Assembly (NCBI GenBank): GCA_963833025.1
Contig: CAWHWI010000003.1
Span: 618,338-682,337, forward strand
Origin: an uncultured delta proteobacterium
GTDB taxonomy: Bacteria > Desulfobacterota > Binatia > Binatales > Binataceae
Direction: 5' to 3'
DNA: 64,000 bases
The notes beneath the pieces were generated by a model. That model did not search any database and was not told where the DNA came from. It saw nothing but the letters and a program-made list of their open reading frames with translations. A program made the translations under genes and the position numbers. Below are positions 4,509 through 61,359 of the stretch, piece by piece. Position 1 is the stretch's first letter; each line of letters begins with the position of its first letter.

Positions 4509-6008
4509 TCAATGAAGCATCGCGACGGCCGCGCCCGAAGTCGACAGCACAACCTGGTTGAGATGCACCAGCGAAGTGTTGAGGAGGCCCAAAATCGCAT
4601 GCGGATAAACGCCGAGTATCAGCACGATCACGCCAAGTGGCACCAGCGTGAACGCCTCGCGAAACGACAAATCCGGAAGGTCCTTGTACTTCTCGTTCAA
4701 CGGCCCAAGATAGATTCGCTGGAACGTCCACAGCAGGTAGCCGGCCGTCAGTATCGCCGTCGCCGCGCCAAACACGACCATCAGCGGATGCGTCTGCCAC
4801 GCTCCGAGCAGCACCAGCACTTCCGAAATAAACGCGGACATCCCCGGCAGTCCCATGCCCGCGAAAAACGCGAAGCCCGTAATCGCCGTATAGATCGGCA
4901 TCTGCTGCGCCAGACCGCCGAAGCCGTTTATCTCGCGATGGTGTGCGCGATCGTAAATCACGCCGACCAGGATAAAGAGCATCGCGGTAATCGTTCCGTG
5001 ATTGAACATCTGCAGCACCGCGCCGTTGATCCCCGCCGCAGTGAACGCCGCCAGCCCGAGCATCACGTAACCCATGTGGCTAATCGACGAATAGGCAATC
5101 AACTTCTTATAGTCAGTCTGCGCCATCGCGCACATCGCGCCGTATACTATGTTGATAGTGCCGATCACCCCAAGGAACAGCCAAGCGAGCTGATAGCTCG
5201 CCGCTGGCAGCACCGCGAAATTGACGCGGAGAATTCCGTAGGTGCCCATTTTCAGTAGTACACCCGCAAGAATCACTGAGATCGCCGTCGGCGCTTCAAC
5301 GTGCGCGTCAGGCAGCCAGGTATGGAACGGGAACGCCGGAATTTTGATCGCGAAGCCGATGAATAGCGCGATCCAAGCTATTCGTTGGAATCCAATTGAG
5401 TAGTGACTCGAATTCGCCGCCAGCTCGGTCAAATCAAACGTCGGAGTCGCGCCATAGTAATACAGTCCGAGCATCGCCAGCAGAATGAGTACTGAGCCGA
5501 GTAGTGTGTACAGAAAGAACTTGATCGCCGCGTACTCGCGTCGCGGACCGCCCCAGATGCCGATGAGAAAATACATCGGCAGCAGCATCACTTCCCAGAA
5601 AATGTAGAACAGGAAGAAATCCAGCGACACGAACACGCCCATCATTCCGGTGTCGAGCATCAACAGCATCGCGTAATAGCCTTTCTCCGCGCGATTGATG
5701 CCGAAGCTCGCGAACACCGAGATGAACATGATGAGCGCGGTCAGCAGGATCATAGAGATGCTGATACCGTCCACGCCGATGAAGTAACTAATGTGGTATG
5801 CGGGCATCCACGACGCTTTCTCGGCGAACTGCACCGCGCTGGTCGTCGTGTCGAAGTTTTCGTAAAGGTAAATTGCGATTAGCAGCTGCGGTATCGTCGC
5901 CGCCACCGCGATCCACTTCGACGCGTTCTTCATCGAGTCGGGCAGCGCGAGAATCAGCACCATCCCGGCGATCGGAACAAAGGTTATCAGCGTAAGCGCG
6001 TGACTCAT
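4509..6008 (-). CDS. nuoM: NADH-quinone oxidoreductase subunit M
   Basis: 499-aa antiporter-like subunit; position and similarity to NuoM. Confidence 0.93.
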   Translation of the reverse strand: MSHALTLITFVPIAGMVLILALPDSMKNASKWIAVAATIPQLLIAIYLYENFDTTTSAVQFAEKASWMPAYHISYFIGVDGISISMILLTALIMFISVFASFGINRAEKGYYAMLLMLDTGMMGVFVSLDFFLFYIFWEVMLLPMYFLIGIWGGPRREYAAIKFFLYTLLGSVLILLAMLGLYYYGATPTFDLTELAANSSHYSIGFQRIAWIALFIGFAIKIPAFPFHTWLPDAHVEAPTAISVILAGVLLKMGTYGILRVNFAVLPAASYQLAWLFLGVIGTINIVYGAMCAMAQTDYKKLIAYSSISHMGYVMLGLAAFTAAGINGAVLQMFNHGTITAMLFILVGVIYDRAHHREINGFGGLAQQMPIYTAITGFAFFAGMGLPGMSAFISEVLVLLGAWQTHPLMVVFGAATAILTAGYLLWTFQRIYLGPLNEKYKDLPDLSFREAFTLVPLGVIVLILGVYPHAILGLLNTSLVHLNQVVLSTSGAAVAMLH

Positions 6009-6060: not shown

Positions 6061-8136
6061 TCATGCCCGCGCGACCGCGCGCACCAGCAGTATCAGCATC
6101 ACCGCGGCCAGGATTCCGTAGAGATATCCGTTAATCGAACCGGTCTGCAGCCGCCGGAGCCTGCCGCCAACGTCGAGCGTCAGGTTCGACGCGAAGTTCA
6201 CCAGCCCATCGACTATGTAATGGTCGAATAGTCCAGACAGCCAGGACAGAAATACTATTACCCGCGCCGCGAGATTAACTACTCCGTCAATTATATTCGT
6301 GTCGAACCAGGCCAACGCCCGCGTCGCGAATAGGTATGGCTGAATAACTACTCGATCGTAAAATTCATCGACATAGTATTTGTTGTATACCCATTCGTAA
6401 GGCACTCCGCCGAACATCTGGCTAAAGCGCGCGGGATCGAGCTTCTCTTGCCGATACATCAAATCAGCAAGGTACCATCCAGCGGCCACCACTATGAAAG
6501 TGACACCAGCGAACGTCCCCTCGACCAGATGATTGTGCATTCCCGACTCGGTAACGCGACGCGTGACGTCTGATCTGAGAATGGGCTCAAGGAATTCCTC
6601 GAACGGTTTGAACGCGATGATAAATTCCGGCCACTTCAACCATCCACCGACGACCGAAAGCGTGCCCAGCACAATCAGCACGTAAGCCATGGAGGGCGGC
6701 GATTCGTGCAGATGGTGCTCCTGCTCATGCGTGCCGCGAAATTCGCCGAAGAAAGTCATGTACACCTGACGCGACATGTAGAAGACGGTGAATCCGGCAC
6801 CTAGCAGCAGGAACGCCCACACGACGAAATGCCCATGCGAGAACGCCTGCCATATGATCTCATCTTTGGAGAAGAAGCCGGCAAACGGGAAAATGCCACA
6901 GAGCGCGAAGGTCGCTGCGACGAAGGTCCAGAACGTGATCGGCATCTTATGGCGCAGGCCGCCCATCTTGCGCATGTCCTGCTCGCCGCCCATCGCGTGA
7001 ATCACCGACCCCGATCCCAGGAACAGGCAGGCTTTGAAGAACGCATGCGTCATCAGGTGGAACACGCCGGCCGCGTATGCTCCGACGCCCATCGCCGCGA
7101 ACATGTATCCGAGCTGGCTCACCGTCGAGTACGCGAGCACCTTCTTGATGTCGTTTTGCGCGATGCCAATCGTCGCCGCGAACAGCGCGGTCATACCGCC
7201 CACCAGCGCAATCACGCCCATCGTGAAGGGCGACATCGAAAATAAAAAATTCAGCCGCGCCACCATGTACACGCCTGCCGTCACCATCGTCGCCGCATGG
7301 ATCAGCGCGCTGACCGGAGTCGGCCCGGCCATCGCGTCCGGCAGCCACACGTACAGCGGTATCTGCGCCGACTTTCCGGTCGCGCCGATGAACATCAACA
7401 GCGTGACGAATCCCACCAGCGTGTGCGCCGAATGGTAGCCTGCAAAATTTATCGGCACTCCCGACAGCAACGGCGCGTACTTCGCGACCTCGCGCGTCAC
7501 CAGCGTCGGATGCCCGAGCGCATCGAGTCCCGCGAACAAACTGTACAACGCGATCACGAACGCCAAGTCACCGACGCGGTTCACGATGAACGCCTTGTTG
7601 CCCGCCGTCGTGTTCGCCGTCACCTTGTACCAGAACCCAATCAGCGCGAACGAGCACAGCCCCACGCCTTCCCAACCCACAAACATCAGCCACAGGTTGT
7701 CGCCCAGCACCAGCACCAGCATCGCGAACGTGAACAGGTTGAGCCATCCGAAGAATCGCCAGTAGCCGTCGTCGTCGTGCATGTAGCCGGTCGAGTAGAT
7801 GTGAATCAGGCCGCCGACGCCGGTGATTATCAGCGTCATGATCATAGACAACGGATCGAGCCAGAACGCGATGTCGAGGTTCAGTCCGCCGACGTCGAAC
7901 CACTTCCACAAGTCGTCGAGCATGAAGCGGTTGTCCGGCGGCAACGTGAGCATCGCGAAAAACGCGCGCGCCGCCAGGATGAACGCCAGGATCACGACGC
8001 CGCATCCCACCAGGCTGATCGCGCGCTTGCCGAAGGTCTTCTGCAGCCACGCGCCGGCCAGGAAATTGACCGCCGCGCCCAAAAGCGGCAGCACCACGAT
8101 CAGTCGTATGAACGTAACCGGTATCGGGTGATCCAT
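6061..8136 (-). CDS. nuoL: NADH-quinone oxidoreductase subunit L
   Basis: 691-aa antiporter-like subunit with long C-terminal extension; position in operon. Confidence 0.93.
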   Translation of the reverse strand: MDHPIPVTFIRLIVVLPLLGAAVNFLAGAWLQKTFGKRAISLVGCGVVILAFILAARAFFAMLTLPPDNRFMLDDLWKWFDVGGLNLDIAFWLDPLSMIMTLIITGVGGLIHIYSTGYMHDDDGYWRFFGWLNLFTFAMLVLVLGDNLWLMFVGWEGVGLCSFALIGFWYKVTANTTAGNKAFIVNRVGDLAFVIALYSLFAGLDALGHPTLVTREVAKYAPLLSGVPINFAGYHSAHTLVGFVTLLMFIGATGKSAQIPLYVWLPDAMAGPTPVSALIHAATMVTAGVYMVARLNFLFSMSPFTMGVIALVGGMTALFAATIGIAQNDIKKVLAYSTVSQLGYMFAAMGVGAYAAGVFHLMTHAFFKACLFLGSGSVIHAMGGEQDMRKMGGLRHKMPITFWTFVAATFALCGIFPFAGFFSKDEIIWQAFSHGHFVVWAFLLLGAGFTVFYMSRQVYMTFFGEFRGTHEQEHHLHESPPSMAYVLIVLGTLSVVGGWLKWPEFIIAFKPFEEFLEPILRSDVTRRVTESGMHNHLVEGTFAGVTFIVVAAGWYLADLMYRQEKLDPARFSQMFGGVPYEWVYNKYYVDEFYDRVVIQPYLFATRALAWFDTNIIDGVVNLAARVIVFLSWLSGLFDHYIVDGLVNFASNLTLDVGGRLRRLQTGSINGYLYGILAAVMLILLVRAVARA

Positions 8137-12415: not shown

Positions 12416-12928
12416 TCAGGCTGCGGCCACCTGCTTGCCATTGCCGTTGGGCGAGCGCACCAGCCAGCGCTCGGTCATCATCTTTTCCTGCAGCTTGAGC
12501 AGGCCCTCGGTCAGCGCCTCGGGGCGCGGCGGGCAACCGGGAACGTACACATCGACCGGCAGGATCTTGTCGACGCCGTCGCAGACCGAGTAGGCGAACT
12601 GGAACAGTCCGCCGCAGCTCGCGCACGAGCCCATCGAGATGACGTACTTCGGGTCGGGCATCTGATCGTAAAGCAGCCGTGTCCTGAGCGCCATTTTGAG
12701 CGTCAGCGTGCCCGCCACGATCATCAGGTCCGACTGGCGCGCCGACGCGCGCGGCGTCGCACCGAAACGATCGATGTCAGCGCGCGGGCCGCCCGTATGC
12801 ATCAGCTCGATCGCGCAGCAAGCCAGGCCGAACAGCATGTACCAGATGCTCGATTTGCGCATCCAATTCAGCAGCTCGTCCGTCTTGGTGGTCAAAACGT
12901 AATCGGGAAGCGTGTTCAACAAGGGCAT
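12416..12928 (-). CDS. nuoB: NADH-quinone oxidoreductase subunit B
   Basis: GLACCAIE...MGSCASCGG...VPGCPPRPE cluster N2 motifs. Confidence 0.94.
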
Positions 12929-12939
12929 AAAGACAAACC

Positions 12940-13332
12940 TCAGTCTTCGACCGGTACCTTCTTAATCCATTCCAGGTCGTGCTTGACCCAAACGTAAACC
13001 AGGCCGACGAACAGGATCAGCAGAAAAATTAAAATCTCGCTGAGCGCGTACAGGCGGCGTCCCGAGCGCACCCAGTCCAGGTAAACGGCGGCAATCGGAT
13101 AAACGAATGCGACCTCGACTTCGAACACCACGAAAATCAGCGCAATCAGGTAAAAGCGGACGTTGAAATTGATCCATGCGCGCCCGGTCGGCGGCTCGCC
13201 GCATTCGTAGGGAATCAGCTTCCGATCGTATGGATTTTGCGGCGCCAGCAGCTTCTGCAAGCCGAACATCAGCGCCACGAAGCCGATCCCGATGATCGTC
13301 AGAGCCAGCGGCACGCCAAAATTAAGATACAT
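12940..13332 (-). CDS. nuoA: NADH-quinone oxidoreductase subunit A
   Basis: 130-aa three-helix membrane protein, first gene of nuo cluster. Confidence 0.92.
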
Positions 13333-13448: not shown

Positions 13449-13709
13449 TTATTTGCGCTCCTTCAGCACCGCCTTCAGCGCCGGTTCGTCCAGCCACGCG
13501 CCATGTCCATTCGGGCAGGCGTGTACGTGGACCCCGTTCTCGGTCTGCGCGACCAGAACCTGCTTGCATTTCGGACACACGTGATGGTGCAGGCGCTCGC
13601 GCATCTTCTCGAGCAGCTCTTCATCGCGCTGTCGCGCCCACTGATCTTCGCGCGCCTTCTCGGCATCGTGCAGCTTGTTACCCAGCCGGTCCTTGTGATC
13701 TTCCGCCAT
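13449..13709 (-). CDS. small zinc-ribbon protein (TFIIB-type zinc finger-like)
   Basis: 86 aa with paired Cys/His ligands HHHVCPKCK...VHACPNGHGAWLD. Confidence 0.55.
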   Translation of the reverse strand: MAEDHKDRLGNKLHDAEKAREDQWARQRDEELLEKMRERLHHHVCPKCKQVLVAQTENGVHVHACPNGHGAWLDEPALKAVLKERK

Positions 13710-13719
13710 GGTCCCGCCC

Positions 13720-14058
13720 TCAGGTCATCTCCTTGATCAGCTTGCCGCTGCGTGCTTTCTCGACCGTCGCCTCGAATTTCGATCCGAGATCGACGCCCAT
13801 CTCCTTGGCCCGCTTCTTTGCCCACAATCCAACGTTGCGCGAGTCGCGATAGTAAGAATCGTCGCGTGGCTTCGACGCGTCGAAACTCGCAAGCCGCGAC
13901 GCCTCGCTCTCGACCACCGCGAACGACGACATCACGCGCCGCAGCCGCGCCGACCCGCACTCGGGACATTCGCGACGCTCGCGGCGCCCTGACGAACCCA
14001 TCACGACGTGCGAGCTGACCAGCCCGCATCGCGCGCATTCGTACTCAAAAATCGGCAT
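13720..14058 (-). CDS. FmdB-family zinc-ribbon protein
   Basis: N-terminus MPIFEYECARCG...RECPECGS is the FmdB zinc-ribbon signature. Confidence 0.7.
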   Translation of the reverse strand: MPIFEYECARCGLVSSHVVMGSSGRRERRECPECGSARLRRVMSSFAVVESEASRLASFDASKPRDDSYYRDSRNVGLWAKKRAKEMGVDLGSKFEATVEKARSGKLIKEMT

Positions 14059-14099
14059 CTAAGGAAACAATATCCTGCCCGCACAACGCCCGCAATTCA

Positions 14100-14510
14100 G
14101 GCAGAATCAAGCGCGGGGCTGCGCGCCCCGCACCCGCGGCAGGGGTGACCCCTGCACCCGGTACGGGGAGAAGAGGCGGCCTTCGCCCTATTCCTAACCT
14201 CTCCTTGTCCGAGGAGAGGTCGGCGCGAGCCGAAGGTGAGCGACGGGAGAGGTGCAACGCTGGCCGAACAGTTGCGCGTATTTGTGCTGCTGTCGGGCGG
14301 TGGAGTCAGTGTCTTTGCATTGCGGTTAAACGAGTCGGTCTGGTGGGCTGTCAGGCGTTGCACCTCACCCGGCGACACCGCTGCGCGGCTTACGCCGACC
14401 TCTCCTCGGACAAGGAGAGGTTAGGAACAGCGCGTCAGCCCGCATCTTTCTTCTTTCTTGAAACTGGGTGCAGGGGTCACCCCTGCCGAGGGTGCGGGGC
14501 GAGGAGCCCC
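14100..14510. repeat. composite foldback element with ~115-bp inverted-repeat arms, each containing an A-module and a C-like hairpin, around a ~170-bp centre
   Basis: Left arm 14100-14220 is the reverse complement of right arm 14394-14510. Both include cctaacctctcc..ggagagg and gcaggggt(c/g)acccctgc. The centre has a nested inverted repeat ggtgcaacgc / gcgttgcacc. Confidence 0.8.
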
Positions 14511-14514
14511 GCGT

Positions 14515-14748
14515 CTAATTCTTCCTCCAGCGCTCGCGGACGTCGAGCGCTGGCCCCGCCAGCGGGTTGCCGACCAGTAGCAGAAGTCCGACCGCGCCGA
14601 CCGCCAGCCCGCATCCAAGCCACCAGAGCGAGCGGTACTCGACGCCGAGTGCCAGCATCGCCAGCGCCCACAACGGAATGATTAGCGAGGCGACGAAGCG
14701 CATCAGCGCGCTAATCGCATGCTCGGCCTGTTCAGCGCGGTCATCCAT
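14515..14748 (-). CDS. small membrane protein (2 predicted TM helices), hypothetical
   Basis: 77-aa ORF with hydrophobic segments LIIPLWALAMLALGV and LAVGAVGLLLLV; stop abuts the foldback element. Confidence 0.4.
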   Translation of the reverse strand: MDDRAEQAEHAISALMRFVASLIIPLWALAMLALGVEYRSLWWLGCGLAVGAVGLLLLVGNPLAGPALDVRERWRKN

Positions 14749-14756
14749 CGATCAAT

Positions 14757-16496
14757 CTATTTAGCCCCTGCAGGCGAAATTTCAAAGAGCGCTGGCGGTC
14801 CGCCACCACCGATCAAATTGGACTTCGCGACGAGTTTAAGCCGCGCCCGATACTCAGGCGTCATAGCGTCCATCTCGCGCGGTGTCGCGATCAGATAGGC
14901 GCACTTGGAACTTTTGATATCAGGAACCGCAGTCCCGTAGTAGTACGACAGCTCGTAGTTGAGGCCGCCCGGAACACACAACTGGTCGCCTCTGACATAC
15001 TGCGCAACGGTCGGCACAAAACTCTTCACGCTGCGCATTTCGGCGAGACGGGGACGCATCGTCATGGTCCAGAAAAGGCAGAGAACAAGCGCGGTGAGAC
15101 CGAATGCAAGGCCGCCTCCGATCGCACTAGGTCCTGTCCGTCGGCTCAGGACCAATACTTCGATCGCGACGGCCGCCAGCCAAACATCGAACAAATCGGA
15201 GACGGGTCTCGCCCAGCGCATCGACTTGAAGAGCGAGTAGTAGGTCGCGTCACTCGATTGAAGGTTGAACTGCGGAAAGTGGCCACGGACTAAGACGATG
15301 AAAATAACTGCGAATATCGGGACCAGCACGAATAGCGCGACGAGTACGTCGCGCAACTTCGATGCTGCGCCGCGTGCGTTCAGCATGAACACCGATGCGC
15401 ACAGAATCGCGATTCCCGGTAGCGCGGGCAGGATGTAATCGTCGCGCTTGACGCTTGCGATCGAAAAAAACAGTAACACTGCGAGCGACATGCTCACCTG
15501 GTAGATCACTACGCGGCGTTTCTCGGCCGCGATCTCACCGGTGTAGAAGGCGAGCGCGGCCGGGAGGATCAGGAGCGTCATCGGGAAAGCGCCGCCTAGC
15601 AGGCGCACGGCAATGAAATAGAAGGGACGATAGCTCTCGCCCGTTCCGCCGAGCCGCTCGGGCATGAAATGCCCGAAATTCTCCGCGAAGATGATCCTGA
15701 GGATTTTGTGGCCGCCAACGATCGCCGCCGGCACGTACCAGGCTGCGCCGATTGCGACTGCAATCGCGACGACCTGCCAGGGCCATCGCTGAAGCAACAG
15801 CGCAATCGGATTGCGGCGCTCCATCAACAGATAGATCGACGCGGCAAGCGCGCACAGCACGATTGCTACCGGGCCTTTGGCTAAGATGCCAAGCCCGAGT
15901 ATCACGCCCACAAAAATCTTCCTGCGCGAAGAGCCCGGTGACGCTGTCGCCTCGTCGAGTAGCGGATAAATCTCCGCGTACGCCGCGAAGAGCAGCAACG
16001 TGAGCAACATGTCGGTCAGTGCTTCGGTCGCGCGCGACGCAAATCCGTAGGTGCCGAGCATCAATAGAAAAGCGAGCCATCCTTCGGATGCGCCGACGTT
16101 GGCAGCCGTCCACGCGAGTACGGCAACTGCGAGCACGGTGCCTGCCACGACAGACACTGCGCGTGCGCGAACCTCGTCGACGGCGCCGCCGGTGGATTTC
16201 GCGACGATTGCTGCGAGCCAGTAAAAGAGCGGAGGCTTGCGATCGTTGAAGCCGTACGCGTCCTGCGGTATCAGCCAGCGCCCGTCGCGAACGATGCTCT
16301 GAATCCACTCGGCCGATTGCGGCTCCGCGTCCTTCTGAAACGGCGCGCTGATTCCCTGCGCGAGAACGACGAAGGCGAACAAGGCGGCAATCGCAAGCAT
16401 CGCAGGATGCAGGACCGCGGCGCGACTCGAGGGCGCGGGAGTTTCGGGAGGCTCGAGAGTCACGGACGGCGGGCCGTCGCGACCGGCTCGAGCCAC
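14757..16496 (-). CDS. glycosyltransferase family 39 (ArnT/PMT-like) membrane protein; start may be internal
   Basis: Polytopic 579-aa protein with DRKPPLFYWL and periplasmic-loop features typical of GT39/ArnT-like transferases. Confidence 0.75.
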   Translation of the reverse strand: MARAGRDGPPSVTLEPPETPAPSSRAAVLHPAMLAIAALFAFVVLAQGISAPFQKDAEPQSAEWIQSIVRDGRWLIPQDAYGFNDRKPPLFYWLAAIVAKSTGGAVDEVRARAVSVVAGTVLAVAVLAWTAANVGASEGWLAFLLMLGTYGFASRATEALTDMLLTLLLFAAYAEIYPLLDEATASPGSSRRKIFVGVILGLGILAKGPVAIVLCALAASIYLLMERRNPIALLLQRWPWQVVAIAVAIGAAWYVPAAIVGGHKILRIIFAENFGHFMPERLGGTGESYRPFYFIAVRLLGGAFPMTLLILPAALAFYTGEIAAEKRRVVIYQVSMSLAVLLFFSIASVKRDDYILPALPGIAILCASVFMLNARGAASKLRDVLVALFVLVPIFAVIFIVLVRGHFPQFNLQSSDATYYSLFKSMRWARPVSDLFDVWLAAVAIEVLVLSRRTGPSAIGGGLAFGLTALVLCLFWTMTMRPRLAEMRSVKSFVPTVAQYVRGDQLCVPGGLNYELSYYYGTAVPDIKSSKCAYLIATPREMDAMTPEYRARLKLVAKSNLIGGGGPPALFEISPAGAK

Positions 16497-20488: not shown

Positions 20489-21541
20489 TCACCTGTCCAC
20501 GTGCTCCGTGTAAGGACTGGAAAAGACGAATTCCGTGACGTCGCCCGCGGTCGTGATTCGCCCCACCTTGCCGTTGGGCTCGGTGAACCAGAGGTTGCCG
20601 TCGGGGCCGGCCGTGATGAAAGTTGCCATCGACTTTGCGGGCATCGGGAACGCCGTGAAGTCGCCGCCGGGAGTCAGGCGATAGATCAGTTGCGCGCGAA
20701 TCACAGTGATCCAGAGATTTTTGTCGGCGCCCGCCGCGATTCCGAGAGGCACTCCTGTCGTGGGCAGCGCGAACTCCGTGATGAAACCGTCGGGTGTGAT
20801 CCTGCCAATTTTGCTGGCCTGCGGCTGGGTGAACCACACGTTACCGTCGGCGCCTAGCGCCATCATCGCGGGGCGGCTGTCGGGCAGCAGGATTGCGAAT
20901 TCCTTGACGTTCCCCGAGATGGTGACGCGCGCGATACGATTAACCTTGTCTTCGGCGAACCACAGATTGCCGTCGCTGCCACCGACTATTTCGGCGGGAC
21001 CCGTCCCCTTGAGCAGCTCGATCTCGGTCAGAGTGCCGGTGGTGCTGAGGCGTCCGATGCGATTGCCGGAATGCTCGGTGAACCACAAATTGCCGTCGCG
21101 ACCCGAAGTGATTCCCGCCGGTCCGCTGTCCGAATGAGGCAATTTGACGTACGCGATTTTTCCGTCGGGAGCGACGCGGCCGATGCGGTTGCCGAGCGTA
21201 TCGGTGAACCACACTGCGCCGTCGGGGCCGGCGGTGATTCGCTCGGCGAATCCGTCGGGATCGATCCGAAAACGCTTGGTGGCGCCGTACGGAGTCATCT
21301 GTCCTATCGCGTCGCCCTGGTACTCGGTGAACCACAGGTTGCCGTCGAGGCCCGCCGTGATTGCGTACGGCGCATGCGTGCCGACGGGCGCTCCGGTCGG
21401 CGTCGGCTGCGCGCTCGGAACGGCCGCGGCGCTGATGTTCCCCGAGGGCGACGGTCGCTTCGCGGCGCATCCCGCTACGATCGCGAGCGCGGCGGCAAAA
21501 ATCGTGACCGTCAGTGCGCGGCTGATCGAGGGATTGCTCAA
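20489..21541 (-). CDS. Vgb (streptogramin lyase)-like beta-propeller lipoprotein; likely TTG start at 21541 overlapping upstream stop (TTGA)
   Basis: Signal peptide with lipobox AIVAGC and repeated DGNLWFTE propeller motifs. Confidence 0.68.
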   Translation of the reverse strand: MSNPSISRALTVTIFAAALAIVAGCAAKRPSPSGNISAAAVPSAQPTPTGAPVGTHAPYAITAGLDGNLWFTEYQGDAIGQMTPYGATKRFRIDPDGFAERITAGPDGAVWFTDTLGNRIGRVAPDGKIAYVKLPHSDSGPAGITSGRDGNLWFTEHSGNRIGRLSTTGTLTEIELLKGTGPAEIVGGSDGNLWFAEDKVNRIARVTISGNVKEFAILLPDSRPAMMALGADGNVWFTQPQASKIGRITPDGFITEFALPTTGVPLGIAAGADKNLWITVIRAQLIYRLTPGGDFTAFPMPAKSMATFITAGPDGNLWFTEPNGKVGRITTAGDVTEFVFSSPYTEHVDR

Positions 21542-22725: not shown

Positions 22726-22802
22726 TGCCGATCAAACGGCGCAGCCAGTGTTGCTTATAGTTCAACCCTCATTCGACTCACAACGACCTGACGTTTTCCC
22801 CC

Positions 22803-22912
22803 TCTAACTTTTAACAGGGACGAAGTCCCGCATCTTCTCTTAATACTGGGTGCAGGGGTCACCCCTGCCGAAGGAAGCGTGAAACCCACCGCGGGTTTCA
22901 CATCTAATTACG
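22803..22912 (+). repeat. multi-hairpin intergenic repeat element, copy 2 (B-C-D)
   Basis: ttttaacagggacgaagtcccgcatc...gcaggggtcacccctgccgaaggaagcgtgaaacccaccgcgggtttcac. Confidence 0.85.
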
Positions 22913-24449
22913 TGAACCGCCCACTCTTGACTGCGATTTCGCGCAGCTTCACGACGCGCGATTGTATCGCGCGGCTCCGGCGCATCCGCTCCAGCGTCAG
23001 CGGTATCCGATACGTCCAGTTCGAATCGCTGATCGTTCCCGGCCGATTGATTCGCGCACTCCATCCGAACAAATCCTGAATCGGAATGATCACCAGCTGC
23101 GACGGCGCCGCATACAGCATGGCCAGGATTGCATCGCGCGCCGATTCCTCGAGCATCCGGCGCGGATTCACTTTGCCCTCGAGCCCGAGCTCGCGCACGA
23201 ACTTCTCGCGCTCTGCGATAGGCTGCGAATGCCACCAAACGGTCAGAGGTTCAGTGTCATGCGTGCCGGTAGTCGCGAGCGAAAGTTCGGGATAGGTCGA
23301 CGGGCCGAGAAATGGTTCGTCGGCGTGGCCCCAGTCGCGCTCCCACTGCATCACCTTATATCCCGGCACGCCCAGCCGCGTGAGCGATTGGCGCACCCAC
23401 GGCGGCACGGTGCCGAGGTCTTCCGCGATCAGCTCGGTCGCCCCGACCTCCTGCTTGATAGTGCGAATCACTTCTTCGCCCTGGCGCAGTTGATCGACTT
23501 CGTCTATCGGCGTGAAAATTCCCGGCGCGTCCAGTTCGGAGCCGAAATTGAAAGTTCGATAAAGCCCAACGACGTGATCGATTCGAAGCAAATCGTAAAG
23601 CGCGCTGGCATGACGCGCACGCGCGCGCAGCACCTTGAATCCCTCCGCGCGCATCTGAGACCAGTTCGGCAGCGGCAGGCCCCATCGCTGTCCCTTGGGA
23701 TTGAAACCGTCGGGGGGAGCGCCCACGGTGCGCGACAAATCGAACTCGCCCTGGTTTGCCCACACCTCGGCGCTGTCGCTGCACGGCGAGAACGCGAGAT
23801 CTCCGCCGATAAACGCGCCGTGCGACGATGCGTACGCGCGCATCTCCGACCACTGCCGATGCGCGACGAACTGCCAGTGGCAGTACATCTCGATCGCGTC
23901 GGCCAGATCGCGGCGCGCGAGCGCGAGCGCGGCGGAATCGCGCTTCGCAATTTCAGCCGGCCACGTTTCCCAGCTGGTCCAGTTGAAGCGCTCCTTGAGC
24001 GCGCGAAACAGCGCATAGTCATGAAGCCAGTACGAGTTGGCCTCGATGAAGGCGTCGAGCTGCGCGCCGTCATCGCGTCCGCCGCGCGCGCGAGTCGCCC
24101 GGTACGCGCGCTCGAGCAACACAAACTTCTCCCGCCGTGTGATCGCGCGCGGCACAAAGCGCGCCTTCCCGACCGCCTGGCGTGCGCGCGCCTGCACGAC
24201 CCGCCCGACTCCCGGCAGCCCGCTTACCGATATGTACATCGGATCGATCGCCATCACGCTCATCGCGCTGTACGGGCTGAGATCGTCAGGCCCCGTCTCG
24301 TCCAACGGCAGCAGCTGAATCACGCGATGACCCATCGACAGCGCGAAGTCGATCATCGGCGCGAGACTGAGGATTTCGCCGCGTCCGAGATCGTCGCGCG
24401 TGCGAATCGAGAACAGTGGAATCAGGATTCCCGCGGACCGCGTCAGCAT
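22908..24449 (-). CDS. malQ: 4-alpha-glucanotransferase (amylomaltase, GH77)
   Basis: MLTRSAGILIPLFSIRTRDDLGRGEI...GDLAFSP...IIPIQDLFGW GH77 motifs. Confidence 0.9.
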   Translation of the reverse strand: MLTRSAGILIPLFSIRTRDDLGRGEILSLAPMIDFALSMGHRVIQLLPLDETGPDDLSPYSAMSVMAIDPMYISVSGLPGVGRVVQARARQAVGKARFVPRAITRREKFVLLERAYRATRARGGRDDGAQLDAFIEANSYWLHDYALFRALKERFNWTSWETWPAEIAKRDSAALALARRDLADAIEMYCHWQFVAHRQWSEMRAYASSHGAFIGGDLAFSPCSDSAEVWANQGEFDLSRTVGAPPDGFNPKGQRWGLPLPNWSQMRAEGFKVLRARARHASALYDLLRIDHVVGLYRTFNFGSELDAPGIFTPIDEVDQLRQGEEVIRTIKQEVGATELIAEDLGTVPPWVRQSLTRLGVPGYKVMQWERDWGHADEPFLGPSTYPELSLATTGTHDTEPLTVWWHSQPIAEREKFVRELGLEGKVNPRRMLEESARDAILAMLYAAPSQLVIIPIQDLFGWSARINRPGTISDSNWTYRIPLTLERMRRSRAIQSRVVKLREIAVKSGRFT

Positions 24450-29339: not shown

Positions 29340-29844
29340 CGCCGCCGCTCAATCCGACTCGCGCGAGCTGGTCGTCACCCGCGTCCTCGACGCGCCGCGC
29401 GCCCTGGTGTGGAAAGCACTCACCGAGCCCGAGCGCCTCGAGCACTGGTGGGGGCCGAAGGGCTTCACTTCAAAGGTCCACAAGCTCGAGCTGCGCCCCG
29501 GCGGCATCTTCCTCTACAGCCAACGCACGCCTGACGGCCGCGAGATGTGGGGCAAATGGGTCTATCGCGAAATCGTCGCGCCCGAGCGGCTGGTGAGCGT
29601 CTCTTCCTTCACCGATGAGAAGGGTAATTCGATCCCGCATCCTTTGATCCCGAACTGGCCGCTGGAGATTCTGGGCGTGTCCACGTTCACCGAGCGTCAG
29701 GGCAAGACCACGATGGTCGTGCGGATGGTCCCGGTAAACGCGACCGAGTCGGAGCGCAAGACTTTCGAAGAACACCTCAATTGGATGGAAGAGGGTTTTG
29801 CCGGAACTCTCGAAAAGCTCGACAAATACCTGGCGTCACTCTGA
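29323..29844 (+). CDS. SRPBCC/AHSA1 (Aha1-like) domain protein, paralog 1
   Basis: RVLDAPRALVWKALTEPERLEHWWGPKGF signature. Confidence 0.8.
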   Translation: MAAKSSAAAQSDSRELVVTRVLDAPRALVWKALTEPERLEHWWGPKGFTSKVHKLELRPGGIFLYSQRTPDGREMWGKWVYREIVAPERLVSVSSFTDEKGNSIPHPLIPNWPLEILGVSTFTERQGKTTMVVRMVPVNATESERKTFEEHLNWMEEGFAGTLEKLDKYLASL

Positions 29845-29878
29845 GGCATCATCACCAACAGGCTGAAGGAGAGCAGCT

Positions 29879-29989
29879 ATGCAACTCAATCCCTATCTGA
29901 ACTTCGATGGCAACTGCGCCGCCGCGTTCAAGTTCGTCGATCAATTCGGCACGCCCTGGATGATCAACTGCGAGGGCGAAGCGCGATGA
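29879..29989 (+). pseudogene. 36-codon remnant of a PhnB/VOC-like gene (N-terminus only), translationally coupled (ATGA) to next gene
   Basis: MQLNPYLNFDGNCAAAFKFVDQFG matches the conserved N-terminus of PhnB-like VOC proteins, then stops. GAAGGAG SD upstream. Confidence 0.5.
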
Positions 29990-30480
29990 CTTCCGCAAGG
30001 CCGACGATATCCGATTCCGCGCCGGAAGATACCTCGGATCGCGAGATCGTCGTCACCCGAGTTTTCGACGCGCCGCGAGCGCTCGTGTTCAAGTTGTGGA
30101 CTGATCCGCAACATGTCGCGCGATGGTGGGGGCCGAATGGCTTTAGCACCACGACTTATGAGATGGACGTGCGGCCGGGCGGCGTGTGGCGCTTCGTCAT
30201 GCACGGACCCGACGGCCGGGATTATCAGAACAAGGTCGCATATGTCGAAATCGCCGAGCCCGAGCGACTGGTTTACAAGCATGTCTCCGGTCCGCAATTT
30301 CAAATGACGGTGACCTTTGCCGACGCCGGCGACAAGACGAGGCTCACGGCGCGGATGCTCTTCGAGTCAGCCACCCTGCGCAACAAGGTCATCGAAGAAT
30401 TCGGGGCCGTCGAGGGACTCAAGCAGACTCTCGGACGCCTCGACGATTATGTGAACCATACTAAGGAGAGCATCCGATGA
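29986..30480 (+). CDS. SRPBCC/AHSA1 domain protein, paralog 2
   Basis: RVFDAPRALVFKLWTDPQHVARWWGPNGF. Confidence 0.8.
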   Translation: MTSARPTISDSAPEDTSDREIVVTRVFDAPRALVFKLWTDPQHVARWWGPNGFSTTTYEMDVRPGGVWRFVMHGPDGRDYQNKVAYVEIAEPERLVYKHVSGPQFQMTVTFADAGDKTRLTARMLFESATLRNKVIEEFGAVEGLKQTLGRLDDYVNHTKESIR

Positions 30481-30929
30481 CTTCAAACACCGAAGTTACA
30501 GTTGGCGATCGCGAGCTCACCATCACGCGCATCTTCGACGCGCCCCGCCCGCTGGTTTTCTTCGCGTGGTCAAGACCCAAACATCTGATGCGTTGGTTCG
30601 CGCCCAACAACTTCACCGTGTCGGAGTGCGAGATGGACTTCCGCGAGGGCGGAAAGTTCCGGCTGTGCATGCGCGGCTTCGGCAAGGACCATTGGATGAA
30701 CGGCGTCTTTCGCGAAATCGTCAAGCCGGAGCGAATCGTCTGGAGCAGCTTGTTGGATAACGACACCAACGAAGTGGTCACGACGGCGACGTTCACCGTT
30801 ATGGGCGGCGGCAAGACCATGCTCACAGTGCATCAGACCTACTCGATCGAAACTGATTCGACCCGCGGTGCACCACAGGGATGGTCCGAAACCCTCGATC
30901 ATCTCGCCGAATTACTGGCGGACGCCTGA
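30477..30929 (+). CDS. SRPBCC/AHSA1 domain protein, paralog 3
   Basis: RIFDAPRPLVFFAWSRPKHLMRWFAP; ATGA overlap with paralog 2. Confidence 0.8.
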   Translation: MTSNTEVTVGDRELTITRIFDAPRPLVFFAWSRPKHLMRWFAPNNFTVSECEMDFREGGKFRLCMRGFGKDHWMNGVFREIVKPERIVWSSLLDNDTNEVVTTATFTVMGGGKTMLTVHQTYSIETDSTRGAPQGWSETLDHLAELLADA

Positions 30930-30954
30930 CGGAATCGACTGAAGGAGAATTATT

Positions 30955-31425
30955 ATGGGAGCAGCAGTTAACCTGGTAAGCGAGCCTGCGGATCGCGTGC
31001 TTAAAATCGAGCGCGTCTTCGACGCGCCGCGCAGTCTCGTCTTCAAAGCCTGGACCGAGCCCGAGCACATCGCGAAATGGTGGGGTCCGCGCGGCTTCAC
31101 CAGCACCGTTCTCAAAAACGATCTGCGCCCGGGCGGCGCCTATCGAATCCACATGCGCGGACCCGACGGCGATCACTGGACGCAGGGCATCTATCGCGAA
31201 GTGGTCCCTCCCGAGCGGCTGGTCATGGTCGGGAGCTGGGCCGATGCGCAGGGCAATCCAACGCGCCCCGAAACGACGCTGACGCTGCTGTTCGAGGATC
31301 TCGGCGGCAAGACCAAGCTCACTCTGCACAACGCGGTCTTCGAATCGGTCACGGCGCGCGATTTGCACCAGGGCGGATGGACCAGCGCGCTCGATTGTCT
31401 CGCCGAATACCTGGCAACTGCCTGA
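30955..31425 (+). CDS. SRPBCC/AHSA1 domain protein, paralog 4
   Basis: RVFDAPRSLVFKAWTEPEHIAKWWGPRGF. Confidence 0.8.
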   Translation: MGAAVNLVSEPADRVLKIERVFDAPRSLVFKAWTEPEHIAKWWGPRGFTSTVLKNDLRPGGAYRIHMRGPDGDHWTQGIYREVVPPERLVMVGSWADAQGNPTRPETTLTLLFEDLGGKTKLTLHNAVFESVTARDLHQGGWTSALDCLAEYLATA

Positions 31426-33214: not shown

Positions 33215-34105
33215 ATGCAAAACCCGCAGGAATACTATAAGAGCGAAGGGCCAATGACAGCTCTGGGAGCGCACGCGGAAGAATTCCGCGCGATGCCCAC
33301 GGACCTCGCCTCGCTATGCGAGGTCGTACAGGGCTTGCTGATTCATCGCGATATTGCGCCATGGCTGTACGGCCTCACGCTGACCGAGGCGCAGCGCGAC
33401 GACGGCAACATCCGCCCGATCGCGAAAATGCTGACGCGCATTCACGAGCTCGATTCGCGCCCGATCACGAGCGCGCGCGACGTCGGCCACCGGCTCCCCA
33501 GCGTATGCCGTCATTTTTCGCTGATGCTCAGCGCCATACTCCGGTATCAGGGCATACCGGCGCGGCCGCGATGCGGCTTCGGCGCCTACTTCACGCCGGG
33601 CAAGTTCGAAGACCATTGGGTGTGCGAGTATTGGAACGCCGGCGAGAAGCGCTGGATATTGGTGGACGCGCAGCTCGACTCGATTCAGCGCAAAGCCTTG
33701 AACATCAATTTCAACCCGCTCGACGTGCCGCGCGACCGCTTCATAATCGCGGGCAACGCGTGGCAGATGTGCCGCACCGGCGCCGCCGATCCCGCCAACT
33801 TCGGGCTCACGCACGTCCACCTGCAGGGGATGTGGTTCATCGCCGGCAACGTGGTCCGCGATCTCGCGTCGCTCAACAAAATGGAACTGCTACCATGGGA
33901 CGTCTGGGGCTTGATGGATATGAACGACGCCGCACTGACCGACGAGAAAAAATCCCTACTCGATCGCGTCGCAACTCTAACCCTCGCGGGCGACAACGCG
34001 TTCCCCGAAGTCCGCGCAATCTACAACGACGATCGCCTCCGCGTCCCACCACTTGTCTTCAACGCACTGCGCAACGCCCCCGAACCAATCGCGAGCGAGA
34101 ACTAA
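33215..34105 (+). CDS. transglutaminase-like cysteine protease domain protein (start may be ATG 33254)
   Basis: CRHFSLMLSAILRYQGIPARPRCGF...HWVCEYW...WILVDAQ, consistent with the Cys-His-Asp transglutaminase core. Confidence 0.72.
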   Translation: MQNPQEYYKSEGPMTALGAHAEEFRAMPTDLASLCEVVQGLLIHRDIAPWLYGLTLTEAQRDDGNIRPIAKMLTRIHELDSRPITSARDVGHRLPSVCRHFSLMLSAILRYQGIPARPRCGFGAYFTPGKFEDHWVCEYWNAGEKRWILVDAQLDSIQRKALNINFNPLDVPRDRFIIAGNAWQMCRTGAADPANFGLTHVHLQGMWFIAGNVVRDLASLNKMELLPWDVWGLMDMNDAALTDEKKSLLDRVATLTLAGDNAFPEVRAIYNDDRLRVPPLVFNALRNAPEPIASEN

Positions 34106-34115
34106 CGCTTAACAA

Positions 34116-34230
34116 GTTCTAACAGGGACGAAGTCCCGCATCTTCTCTTGGTACTGCGTGCAGGGGTCACCCCTGCCGAAGGAAGCGTGAAACCCACCGC
34201 GGGTTTCACATTCAATTGAGTTCCTCCGCC
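34116..34230 (+). repeat. multi-hairpin intergenic repeat element, copy 3 (B-C-D)
   Basis: gttctaacagggacgaagtcccgcatc...gcaggggtcacccctgccgaaggaagcgtgaaacccaccgcgggtttcacattcaattga. Confidence 0.85.
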
Positions 34231-59603: not shown

Positions 59604-59630
59604 AAAAGTCTTCTCGTATTTCTTGTCCTG

Positions 59631-59797
59631 ATCCTAAGCTCTCCTTGTCCGAGGAGAGGTTAGGATCTTCCCCTTTACAAACTTCTAACAGGGACGAAGT
59701 CCCGCATCTTTCTTAGCACTGGGTGCAGGGGTCACCCCTGCCGAAGGAAGTGTGAAACCCACCGCGGGTTTCACATTAAACAATTGATTTCCCCTTC
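59631..59797 (+). repeat. multi-hairpin intergenic repeat element, copy 4, full length (A-B-C-D-tail)
   Basis: tcctaagctctccttgtccgaggagaggttagga...ctaacagggacgaagtcccgcatc...gcaggggtcacccctgc...gtgaaacccaccgcgggtttcacattaaacaattgatttcccc. Confidence 0.88.
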
Positions 59798-60649
59798 CTA
59801 TACATACAACGACGCGATCTTCTTCAGCGTCCCCTCCGCACTCTCGAACGTGAGAGCTCCCAACCCCGCGACAAACCGCCCCGCGCCCGCCGCGGCAAAC
59901 TCCTTCAGCCCGTCCTGCACCTGCGCGCGATCGCCGCGGATTCCGCCCATGATCGTGATGTCCAACTCCGCGAAATTCCTGCCGGCCGCCGCGCACTCGC
60001 GCTTGAGTTCATCGACGCGCGTTTTCAATTGCGCCGCGTTCAACGCGATAGGGCACCATCCGTCCGCCCACTTCGCCACGCGCTTGAGCGCGTTCTTGTC
60101 CAGGCTGCCGATCAGCACGGGAGGCCCCGACTTCTGCGCCGGTTTCGGCAGCGACTTCACCGGCGGAAACTTGACGTACTTGCCGTCGCATGACGATTGA
60201 TCTTCGGTCCACAGCTTGCGCATCGCGGCGACAATCTCGGCGGTTTCGCTCCAGCGATGAGGGAAATCGACGCCGAACAAATCGCTCTCCTCGCGCAGCC
60301 ATCCCGCGCCGATCCCGAACAGCAAGCGGCCGCCCGAGTACGTGTCCAGAGTCGCGATCTGCTTGGCCAGCGCAAGCGGCTCATGCTCCGGGACGAGACA
60401 GATTCCGGTGGCAAGTTTCAGATTTTTGGTAACCGCAGCCGCCATGCTGAGCGCGATCATCTGATCGGCCATCGTGAAGTACTGCGGCGGAATCGGCCCT
60501 CCGGTAGGAAACTGCTGGACGGGATTAGCGGGCATCGCCGGATGCTCAGGCACCCAAATCGACTCGAACCCAAGCGATTCTGCGACTCGTGCAAATTCCG
60601 CAGGATGAGCATTCGTGCCGGTGAACGGCGTCAGCAATCCAATTTTCAT
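59798..60649 (-). CDS. LLM class (luciferase-like) F420-dependent oxidoreductase
   Basis: MKIGLLTPF...LPKPAQ.. LLM fold; AAGGAG SD before ATG 60649. Confidence 0.8.
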   Translation of the reverse strand: MKIGLLTPFTGTNAHPAEFARVAESLGFESIWVPEHPAMPANPVQQFPTGGPIPPQYFTMADQMIALSMAAAVTKNLKLATGICLVPEHEPLALAKQIATLDTYSGGRLLFGIGAGWLREESDLFGVDFPHRWSETAEIVAAMRKLWTEDQSSCDGKYVKFPPVKSLPKPAQKSGPPVLIGSLDKNALKRVAKWADGWCPIALNAAQLKTRVDELKRECAAAGRNFAELDITIMGGIRGDRAQVQDGLKEFAAAGAGRFVAGLGALTFESAEGTLKKIASLYV

Positions 60650-60713
60650 TTTTTCTCTCCTTGTCAGAGTCCCCAGTTCTAACAAATCCTCCCGTGAATA
60701 ACCTCACGCCCGG

Positions 60714-60882
60714 GTCCTAACCTTTCCTTGTCCGAGGAGAGGTTAGGATCTTCCCCTAACAAAGTTCTAACAGGGACGAAGTCCCGCATCTTTTCTTAGT
60801 ACTGGGTGCAGGGGTCACCCCTGCCCAAGGAAGCGTGAAACCCAGGAGGAGTTTCACATTAAATTAAGTGATTTCCCGTTCC
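60714..60882 (+). repeat. multi-hairpin intergenic repeat element, copy 5, full length (A-B-C-D-tail)
   Basis: gtcctaacctttccttgtccgaggagaggttagga...gttctaacagggacgaagtcccgcatc...gcaggggtcacccctgc...gtgaaacccaggaggagtttcacattaaattaagtgatttccc. Confidence 0.88.
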
Positions 60883-61359
60883 CTATTTCCACCCGAAGAA
60901 ATCCTTCGCAGTGACGAACTTCGCGACGCCGGCTGCTTCGCCCGCCAGCCGGTCGACTTCCTGATCGCCGACCATTGTCGACGACGCCAGATCGACGCCG
61001 TACAAATCCGCGAGCTCCGTGATCATGCCGCCCTTCGGCTTGCGACATTCGCAGTAGTCGTCGTCCGTATGCTGGCAGACTTGCCATCCGGTCAGGATAT
61101 CGCCGAGTTGGTTGTCGAGTTCCTCGAGCGCAGCCTCGACTTTCTCCGCCGTGAGACGGCCGCGCCGGATTCCGGCCTGGTTGGTCACGACGAACATCAG
61201 ACGGTTATGCAGTGGCCGGAGCTTCTCGGCCACGCCGGGCAGCAGTTCGACTACGATATTTCCGTCGGCGTCGAGCGGAATCTCGCGCGACTCGTTCAGC
61301 TTGACGAGCGTGCCGCCCAGATCGAAGAACAGCGCCGCGTTGCCATTCGGATTGGCCAT
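60883..61359 (-). CDS. HAD-IIIA family phosphatase (GmhB/histidinol-phosphatase-like)
   Basis: FFDLGGTLV motif I and VTNQAG motif II. Confidence 0.72.
   Translation of the reverse strand: MANPNGNAALFFDLGGTLVKLNESREIPLDADGNIVVELLPGVAEKLRPLHNRLMFVVTNQAGIRRGRLTAEKVEAALEELDNQLGDILTGWQVCQHTDDDYCECRKPKGGMITELADLYGVDLASSTMVGDQEVDRLAGEAAGVAKFVTAKDFFGWK

Follow-up and report, generated by a model that had tools for sequence, protein, structure and literature searches.

A foldback between mem77 and an fmdB-like gene in Binataceae, read as a REP-like inverted doublet with a nested MITE-like insertion

The 64,000-nt stretch of DNA analysed here in full (the window; contig CAWHWI010000003.1 of an uncultured member of the Binataceae, positions 618,338 to 682,337) contains a 428-bp imperfect palindrome, the composite (14099-14526), in the spacer between mem77, which encodes a 77-aa hydrophobic protein, and an fmdB-like zinc-ribbon gene (fmdB) that precedes nuoA. 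This foldback is real and non-random, and we put the probability that it is nested non-autonomous mobile DNA at roughly 80%. The composite is a doublet that resembles the repetitive extragenic palindromes (REPs), the bacterial interspersed mosaic elements (BIMEs) and the hairpin-forming REP doublets (REPINs), with a nested insertion that resembles a MITE, a miniature transposable element with inverted repeats. Comparison with relatives shows it to be composed of two repeat families, here called Y and X, inserted relative to the ancestral state: two Y units in inverted orientation form the outer arms and one X element lies between their inner ends. Because the Y doublet and X are each an inverted repeat, the composite as a whole is a palindrome, with nested inverted repeats.

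Three such repeats were located by a repeat finder. The outer one (14099-14162 / 14463-14526) is 64 nt long and 88% complementary, the middle one (14184-14232 / 14386-14434) 49 nt and 92%, and the inner one (ggtgcaacgc...gcgttgcacc, 14241-14260 / 14355-14374) 20 nt and 90%. The inner pair had already been noticed in a preliminary description made from the letters of the window, together with a gcgggg...ccccgc hairpin in each arm, and both are present. That description had placed a foldback at 14100-14510; the place is right, and the right end runs on to 14526. Its arms do align as reverse complements, but the term near-perfect was too strong for them: in a gapped alignment of 14099-14260 with the reverse complement of 14355-14526, 139 of the 173 columns match (~80%), and a weakly matching mid-arm segment (14163-14183 against 14435-14462) separates two well-paired blocks. 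The further idea that the whole element could form one long imperfect hairpin agrees with structure prediction. The interval 14059-14530 is predicted to fold into a single long hairpin with, as RNA, an energy of -303 kcal/mol against -191 +/- 6 for shuffled sequences (z = -18.4); folding as DNA gives z = -16.7. The right arm covers the last codons and the stop of mem77.

The Y family is centred on an invariant 22-nt palindrome, H3 (GGGTGCAGGGGTCACCCCTGCC). Its 17-nt core is GCAGGGGT(C/G)ACCCCTGC. Against an expectation of 0, the 64-kb window holds seven such cores, two in the arms of the composite and five in solo Y units of ~120 nt each. A solo unit is, on either of its strands, a chain of three separate predicted hairpins, H2 (GGGAC-GAA-GTCCC), H3 and H4 (GTGAAACCC...GGGTTTCAC), with an A/T-rich tail after H4. 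Both arms of the composite carry instead the H4 variant GCGGGGC...GCCCCGC (H4b) and a degenerate H2. In a scan of one genome per species, the H3 20-mer was found at at least 117 loci, nearly all of them in metagenome-assembled genomes (MAGs) of Candidatus Binatus/Binataceae, and many of the MAGs that bear it are deposited as 'uncultured delta proteobacterium'. The 20-mer was also seen in four putative viral contigs of IMG/VR (L200-L203; loci outside the window are numbered with L throughout).

The statistics on H3 cores were drawn from ~200 fetched loci, 8-kb stretches around pattern matches that amount to ~1% of each genome. The 150 oriented units show Y to be a mosaic. Around a constant H3, the module on the left is H2a, H2b (GCAAAATGGCG...CGCCATTTTGC) or another and that on the right H4a, H4b, H4c or another, and many combinations of them occur. 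When 41 units were aligned, all 41 had the same H3 stem, whereas the H4 stem covaries (UA 26 / CG 14, with further pairs AU 22 / GC 19 and AU 32 / GC 8) and the H2 stem takes the forms GGGAC/GTCCC, GGGGC/GCCCC, GGGC/GCCC and GGCC/GGCC. Such covarying H4 and variable H2 stems beside an unchanging H3 show what is conserved in Y, namely the local hairpins as structure and H3 as sequence. According to crude gene calls, 8 of 155 H3 cores lie within genes. With the same kind of crude, home-made gene caller no clear strand bias of Y relative to transcription was seen, either among all units (36 against 31) or among H4a units in tandem-gene contexts (25 against 18).

Two observations on Y stand apart from these statistics. 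In the window, the outward tails of Y units adjoin or hold the stops of neighbouring minus-strand genes at 1140-1147, 22906-22910, 59796-59800 and 60881-60885; the genes that stop there are rsmI-like (1145-2023), malQ-like (22908-24449), luciferase-like (59798-60685) and a HAD phosphatase gene (60883-61359), and some C-terminal residues are apparently encoded by the repeat, for example the final ...EEGEG of the rsmI-like product. Moreover, the identical 22-nt palindrome occurs as a repeat in Polymorphobacter (Alphaproteobacteria; L005, L030, L058, L068, L072 and L077), where its flanks differ (AAACAACC...CGCCGGAGGC). This exact cross-phylum match, which was unexpected, suggests either a shared recognising protein or horizontal transfer.

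Inverted pairs of H3 less than 700 nt apart (n = 9) are all arranged as in the window: the H2 ends point inward, towards one another, and the H4 tails outward. Doublets, with cores less than 350 nt apart, hold 16 of the 155 cores, and ~139 cores are single. A homologous centre, c1, is found in the doublets of four loci (L036, L084, L037 and L065), in either orientation and between different flanks and neighbouring genes; that the same centre recurs at loci with different flanks indicates that the doublet spread as a unit. The genes on either side of a doublet converge at L037, L065 and L084; at L087, L111 and the window locus they are co-directional. In L149 the doublet is mixed, one arm having H4b and the other H4a.

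The inner element, X, is bounded by terminal inverted repeats (TIRs) of ~73 nt with 85% identity, each of which ends in a hairpin CCTCTCC-loop-GGAGAGG, and its centre is the least conserved part among the copies. Full copies are known from the window and three other loci, with the same termini and unrelated flanks: L098 (3536-3771; 89% identity), L100 (7335-7570; 84% identity, opposite orientation, in the same MAG as L036 and at another locus) and L199 (~5396-5632). The last of these is viral. It lies on the Mu-like phage contig IMGVR_UViG_3300050821_022995, flanked by a Mu Gp27-like gene (PF11985) on one side and an open reading frame (ORF) of 507 aa on the other. This contig has no exact H3 core, and such a phage-borne copy is a possible vehicle for spread between genomes. 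At L098 and L100 a Y unit is present on one side of X only. Both X hairpins of L100 have the stem CCTCCCC/GGGGAGG; at L199 this stem is found in the left hairpin and CCTCTCC/GGAGAGG in the right one. Since the left and right stems of L199 differ while each is locally compensated, it is the local hairpins that are conserved and not the pairing of arm with arm.

Collapsed, solo X hairpins (TCCTAAC-stem-loop-stem-GTTAGGA) are known from L101 and from two places in the window, 59630 and 60713. At five of seven loci the X element or solo hairpin is a near neighbour of a Y unit, at a distance of 0 to ~120 nt from its inner (H2) end, and this points to a target preference or to some link of X with Y. 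The two solo hairpins of the window belong to direct ~160-bp copies of 'solo X hairpin + Y unit' (59627-59786 and 60703-60869), 1083 nt apart, that bracket a single luciferase-like monooxygenase gene (59798-60685; PF00296); the gene between these direct repeats may be a duplicated or mobilised cassette. The TCCTAAC/GTTAGGA ends were also compared with integron attC sites (a 6/7 match to RYYYAAC/GTTRRRY), a reading rejected for wrong size and architecture as judged by eye. The composite was also compared by BLAST with annotated collections of plasmids and phages, and nothing matched.

One end of X gives a full-length weak match to the whalefall-1 motif (RF01762) in three copies, at 15.2, 14.8 and 15.5 bits against a gathering score of 37. 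The likeness consists of a CUCUCCUUG...GGAGAG hairpin and a downstream GGGUGAGG. As the three X sequences are mutual homologues, the recurrence of the match is not independent evidence, and it is not membership of the family; whalefall-1, an orphan motif, may itself be part of a related repeat.

The insertion is seen most directly at orthologous sites, represented by L036 and by 80 metagenome loci (L118-L197) from a scan with the FmdB-like protein. Here the comparison of relatives proposed in the preliminary description reveals a clear presence/absence polymorphism in the mem77-fmdB spacers. L036 (MAG MFD09286.bin.2.99) has the same gene order as the window and closely similar products (NuoB and NuoA both 98% identical, FmdB 93% and the mem77 product 86%). 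Its spacer contains both Y arms and the centre c1 without X, and the H3-H4b parts are ~90% identical to those of the window. Among close relatives (FmdB 88-96% identical), ~20 are empty, with 75-120 nt from the codon aligned with the window mem77 stop to the fmdB ATG. Another ~12 have doublets of 260-380 nt, in which c1 stands in either orientation or is partly deleted, or in which H4b and H4a arms are mixed; L124 and L147 keep a single H4b hairpin, and L133 has a decayed doublet. X is absent from L036 and from 80 of 80 metagenome loci, and at this site only the window has it. In a weakly resolved fmdB tree the states of the site are interspersed and all outgroups are empty. What separates the near-identical sisters L131, with a doublet, and L147, with H4b alone, is precisely the stretch that lies between two GCCCCGC repeats.

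Such mixed states among relatives mark the mem77-fmdB site as a hotspot for insertion, where elements have been gained, have lost internal parts or have had their centre exchanged and where, in the window alone, X has become nested. The view of the foldback as a MITE-like insertion is thus borne out as regards the insertion but not as regards a single element, and orthologs do not keep the region as coding sequence. At the same site, unrelated structured inserts with CCTCTCCC...GGGAGAGG-type hairpins are present in L132/L154 (293-nt spacer) and L151 (272-nt spacer), which makes it a general hotspot for small repeats.

The effect of the insertion is visible in mem77. In empty alleles this gene ends ...ESWRPLSPPKPGADKNHIT before the stop, with a longer C-terminus (...WRPLSPPKPGADKNHIT before the stop). 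In filled alleles it ends early, with ...ERWRKN or similar, and the stop lies directly before H4b, from which it follows that the insertion replaced the 3' end of mem77 and supplied the stop codon. Empty alleles possess a native GC hairpin after the mem77 stop, for example GGCGCGCGAGCCGCGCC in L118. This hairpin is kept in L036, downstream of the doublet, and lost in the window, so that the composite is the only structure there between the upstream operon and the fmdB promoter.

REPs are extragenic and occur mostly after genes and between convergent or co-directional genes (PMC3733652, PMC2817692); in the two REP superfamilies described, one end of the palindrome bears a tag, GTAG or CGTC, that is unpaired (PMC3733652). 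Y shares with the REPs and BIMEs of Enterobacteria a short GC-rich palindrome (H3) in high copy number, an essentially extragenic location, mostly after genes and between convergent or co-directional ones, and an organisation in mosaics with few alternative flanking motifs and alternating orientation. It differs from them in sequence, in host phylum (Binatota) and in size, a Y unit being a chain of three to four hairpins of ~100-150 nt as against a single 35-nt REP. The consensus flank of H3 is ACTGGGT...CCGAAGG, and of 150 units no more than 5 have GTAG, CTAC, CGTC or GACG at 10 nt or less from the core.

REPINs are REP doublets that form hairpins and are mobilised by REP-associated tyrosine transposases (RAYTs) (Bertels & Rainey 2011, PMC3116915). 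The cognate RAYT, a Y1 HUH transposase (PF01797), typically has REPs on either side of it in the genome. The Y doublets likewise consist of two inverted copies and a spacer, have one predicted hairpin and the same spacer at different loci, and are polymorphic for presence and absence between relatives; Y singlets resemble decay products (L133, L124 and L147), as REPIN singlets do. Unlike REPINs, which predominate in Pseudomonas fluorescens, Y doublets are a minority of the H3 cores sampled. Their arms are multi-hairpin structures of ~90-100 nt and their total length is 260-430 bp against ~100 bp for a REPIN, they include heterodimers with different H4 modules (L149), and where REPINs have a RAYT, no RAYT match was obtained in the ~200 sampled loci.

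Bacterial MITEs include Correia/CREE of Neisseria, ERIC and RUP, and nested insertions of such elements occur (PMC10969869, PMC3184786). X resembles them in being short and non-coding, in its long TIRs and sharp conserved ends, in its presence in several genomes with unrelated flanks, in its insertion polymorphism and in its intergenic insertion, with one copy on a phage contig. It differs from them in having no visible target-site duplication. Moreover, its TIRs each end in their own hairpin, with compensatory change, which places X nearer to hairpin-recognised elements than to DDE-type MITEs. We know of no parent insertion sequence with matching TIRs. The BOX repeats of Streptococcus pneumoniae are also comparable with Y: these modular boxA-boxB-boxC repeats are structured and intergenic, and combine a conserved module with variable others. 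The order of BOX modules is fixed (A-Bn-C), whereas the modules on each side of H3 are alternatives, and sequences and hosts are unrelated.

Comparison among relatives shows that an inverted Y doublet entered the 3' end of mem77 in a Binataceae ancestor, replacing the last ~15 codons and giving the gene a new stop just upstream of the fmdB promoter, and that in the lineage of the window X inserted, apparently later, into the centre of the doublet, exactly between the inner ends of the Y arms. The units would owe their movement to an enzyme that acts in trans and recognises their local hairpins together with the invariant H3 sequence. In view of the palindromes, the doublets and the lack of target duplications, the obvious candidate would be a REP-associated HUH/tyrosine (RAYT-like Y1) transposase. 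The composite would have no dedicated regulatory role for fmdB-nuo. Its likeliest side effect would be at the end of the GT39-mem77 transcript, where, in place of the native hairpin after the stop codon, a stable 3' stem-loop could serve as a protector of the mRNA end or as a weak terminator or insulator before the fmdB promoter.

Several points weigh against this picture. When E. coli RayT served as phmmer query on the ORFs of 70 aa or more from the window and the ~200 loci, nothing matched, but these loci cover ~1% of each genome, too small a sample for this to count as evidence of absence. The ORFs enclosed by wider inverted H3 pairs are unrelated and include no transposase (in L079 the enclosed ORF is metalloprotease-like, in L071 it encodes a protein of beta-propeller repeats). 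Neither the doublet, whose insertion was accompanied by the loss of ~50 nt, nor X, at the junctions of its four copies, shows a target-site duplication. The order of events, doublet first and X second, is inferred from the distribution of states among relatives. X and Y may be functionally linked and not fully independent. The doublet has been kept in several diverged lineages with H3 and H4b ~90% conserved, and this retention could mean that it is useful to the host and not merely tolerated. Finally, on the gene-sense strand no hairpin followed by a T-run passes terminator criteria, which weakens a role in termination.

A tentative alternative gives selection the leading part. The composite, or its outer doublet, could be an exapted 3' stem-loop, terminator or insulator at the end of GT39-mem77 that shields the fmdB-nuo promoter; this overlaps with the side effect considered above, and the difference is whether the role is selected. 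The composite does lie exactly between a stop codon and a promoter, as the sole structure remaining in the window once the native GC hairpin is lost. Its arms end outward in a GC hairpin and an A/T-rich tail, with 14490-14516 called terminator-like on the plus strand, and the tails of Y units adjoin the stop codons of five other window genes. The doublets between convergent genes (L037, L065, L084) and the ~90% conservation of H3 and H4b between the window and L036 are in keeping with such a role. Nevertheless, many close relatives lack the composite, its centre is freely replaced, inverted or deleted, the structure is not followed by a canonical U-tract on the gene-sense strand, and Y has no clear orientation preference relative to transcription in the tandem contexts mentioned above.

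It is improbable that the foldback is instead a single MITE of ~430 bp with TIRs of ~125 bp that moved as one piece and left the shorter forms as deletion derivatives. It would fit that at five of seven loci X, or a solo X hairpin, is found beside Y's inner end, and that both arms have the H4b variant in common. On the other hand, no second Y'-X-Y arrangement was found among the ~200 fetched loci, and the orthologous site has Y'-c1-Y in ~12 relatives. X occurs in L199 on a contig with no exact H3 core, Y is one-sided at L098 and L100, and solo Y units are far commoner than doublets.

The region between the composite and fmdB bears on a further proposal, that of a structured 5' leader. A promoter-like motif lies there, outside the mobile DNA. 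In the window it reads, on the minus strand, TTGCGG as -35 (14095-14090), a 17-nt spacer and TATTGT as -10 (14072-14067), followed after 8 nt by the ATG at 14058. Of 79 orthologs (FmdB 64-96% identical), 76 have the pattern TTGnnn-17-TAnnnT in the 60 nt upstream of fmdB, at 7-10 nt from the ATG, compared with an expectation of 0.2 in shuffled sequences and of 0.2% at random positions; the -10 box is mostly TATTCT, TATTGT or TATCCT. A motif resembling a Shine-Dalgarno sequence was found upstream of fmdB in none of the 79. A sigma-70 consensus scan of 13600-14900 called no promoter, the conserved motif scoring 7/12 in the window, so that the assignment rests on conservation across species. The arrangement implies a putatively near-leaderless fmdB mRNA. 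With the motif between the composite and the ATG, the -35 hexamer would come shortly downstream of the composite, which would form no part of the fmdB transcript.

The preliminary description had considered a structured 5' leader influencing the nuo-proximal genes, and this suggestion is not supported: most orthologs lack the structure, and the promoter-like motif lies between it and the start codon. A cis-regulatory RNA of this sort, riboswitch- or attenuator-like and controlling fmdB, the zinc-ribbon gene and nuo, seems very unlikely. Its position upstream of fmdB and its very stable predicted fold would suit such a function, as would a weak Rfam match to anti-hemB (20 bits, E = 0.03) whose terminator-like 3' hairpin overlaps 14065-14169. 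Against it stand not only the absence of the composite from most orthologs and the conserved -35/-10 pair downstream of it, with a Shine-Dalgarno-like motif in none, but also the nature of its parts, which are dispersed repeats found beside unrelated genes. No Rfam family passes at gathering thresholds in the whole window. A search at permissive E-values, of the locus and two other X copies, gave only sub-threshold matches (anti-hemB at 20 bits, whalefall-1 at ~15 bits), and a match of MIR1858 on L100 (50 bits against a gathering score of 137) was rejected as a long-hairpin artefact.

A local palindromic duplication or a chimeric foldback of assembly would be compatible with the symmetry, though with nothing specific to it, and is effectively refuted by same-site doublets in many independent assemblies, by arms that are only ~80-90% complementary and contain indels, and by independent homologues of each part elsewhere.

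Y and its companion X apparently represent an abundant REP/BIME-like mosaic family and a MITE-like element of the Binataceae, an uncultured lineage common in soil and peat worldwide, that have not been described before; the searchable literature on Binatota/Binatia makes no mention of repeats. At this locus, the striking palindrome before the complex I genes would not be a nuo regulator but mobile junk, with co-option as the end of a transcript as the most that might be claimed for it. Repeats of this kind will mislead gene callers through their overlap with stop codons and the long spurious ORFs to which they give rise, and assembly will probably become harder too. A single site in ~80 metagenome contigs displays nearly every stage of gain, decay and nesting and provides material on how REP doublets originate and erode. 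The conserved leaderless-type fmdB-nuo promoter is a concrete, testable statement on transcription in Binatota. More speculatively, GGGTGCAGGGGTCACCCCTGCC might define a third, untagged REP superfamily in Binatota and Polymorphobacter, read by an unrecognised hairpin-binding enzyme or host protein, with the doublet co-opted as an insulator upstream of the leaderless fmdB-nuo promoter; we hold this to be rather doubtful. If it were true, the mem77-fmdB site would present the series empty, single hairpin, doublet, and doublet with nested MITE, and would show how a mosaic is built.

Coordinates of the composite, its parts and the neighbouring genes are collected in Table 1. The gene context given earlier is correct: on the minus strand, to which all these genes belong, the stop of the 77-aa gene is followed by fmdB, a zinc-ribbon gene and nuoA. 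The spacer between fmdB and mem77 measures 456 nt.

Table 1. Features of the composite and its surroundings (window coordinates unless a locus is named)
Feature	Position	Strand	Remarks
nuoB	12416-12928	minus	
nuoA	12940-13332	minus	PF00507
Second zinc-ribbon gene	13449-13709	minus	PF13453
FmdB-like gene (fmdB)	13720-14058	minus	ATG 14056-14058; PF09723 Zn_ribbon_8, E = 3e-11
fmdB promoter-like motif	14067-14095	minus	outside mobile DNA; conservation in orthologs
Left outer arm, one Y unit	14099-14191	minus	alignable with the window's five solo units and with those of other Binataceae genomes
Left arm, A/T-rich outward tail	14099-14112		
Left arm, hairpin H4b	14113-14131		GCGGGGCTGCGCGCCCCGC
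Left arm, invariant H3 palindrome core	14139-14155		
Left arm, degenerate H2 hairpin	~14163-14189		
X element	14192-14426		235 bp; ends TCCTAACC...GGTTAGGA; imperfect TIRs
X, left terminal hairpin H1	14197-14220		ACCTCTCC-TTGTCCGA-GGAGAGGT
X, inner part	14241-14374		TIR inner ends 14241-14260 / 14355-14374 and 94-nt centre
X, right terminal hairpin (H1 inverted)	14398-14421		ACCTCTCC-TCGGACAA-GGAGAGGT
whalefall-1-like X end, window	14361-14423	minus	
whalefall-1-like X end, L098	3705-3771	minus	
whalefall-1-like X end, L100	7338-7400	plus	
Right outer arm, one Y unit	14427-14526	plus	
Right arm, degenerate H2	~14430-14446		
Right arm, H3 core	14470-14486		
Right arm, hairpin H4b	14494-14512		GCGGGGCGAGGAGCCCCGC
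Right arm, tail	14513-14526		with last mem77 codons and TAG stop (14515-14517)
mem77	14515-14748	minus	77-aa hydrophobic ORF; TAG stop 14515-14517; conserved in relatives
PMT/ArnT-like glycosyltransferase (GT39)	14757-16496	minus	
Solo Y units	~1018-1140, 22791-22913, 34099-34221, 59664-59786, 60747-60869		

Neither mem77 nor the ORFs inside the composite have a Pfam match, and an exact look-up of the FmdB-like protein gave no identical entry. At L036, two paralogous copies of the second zinc-ribbon gene (6377-6934) lie between fmdB and nuoA, where the window has one; their products are 80% and 56% identical to the window protein. Two further repetitive regions of the window are coding and unrelated to the foldback. 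At 20552-21363, on the minus strand, a 123-126-nt periodic repeat of ~8 copies encodes a ...DGNLWFTE...-like motif, and 29359-31328 is an array of three to four paralogous genes of ~480-680 nt.

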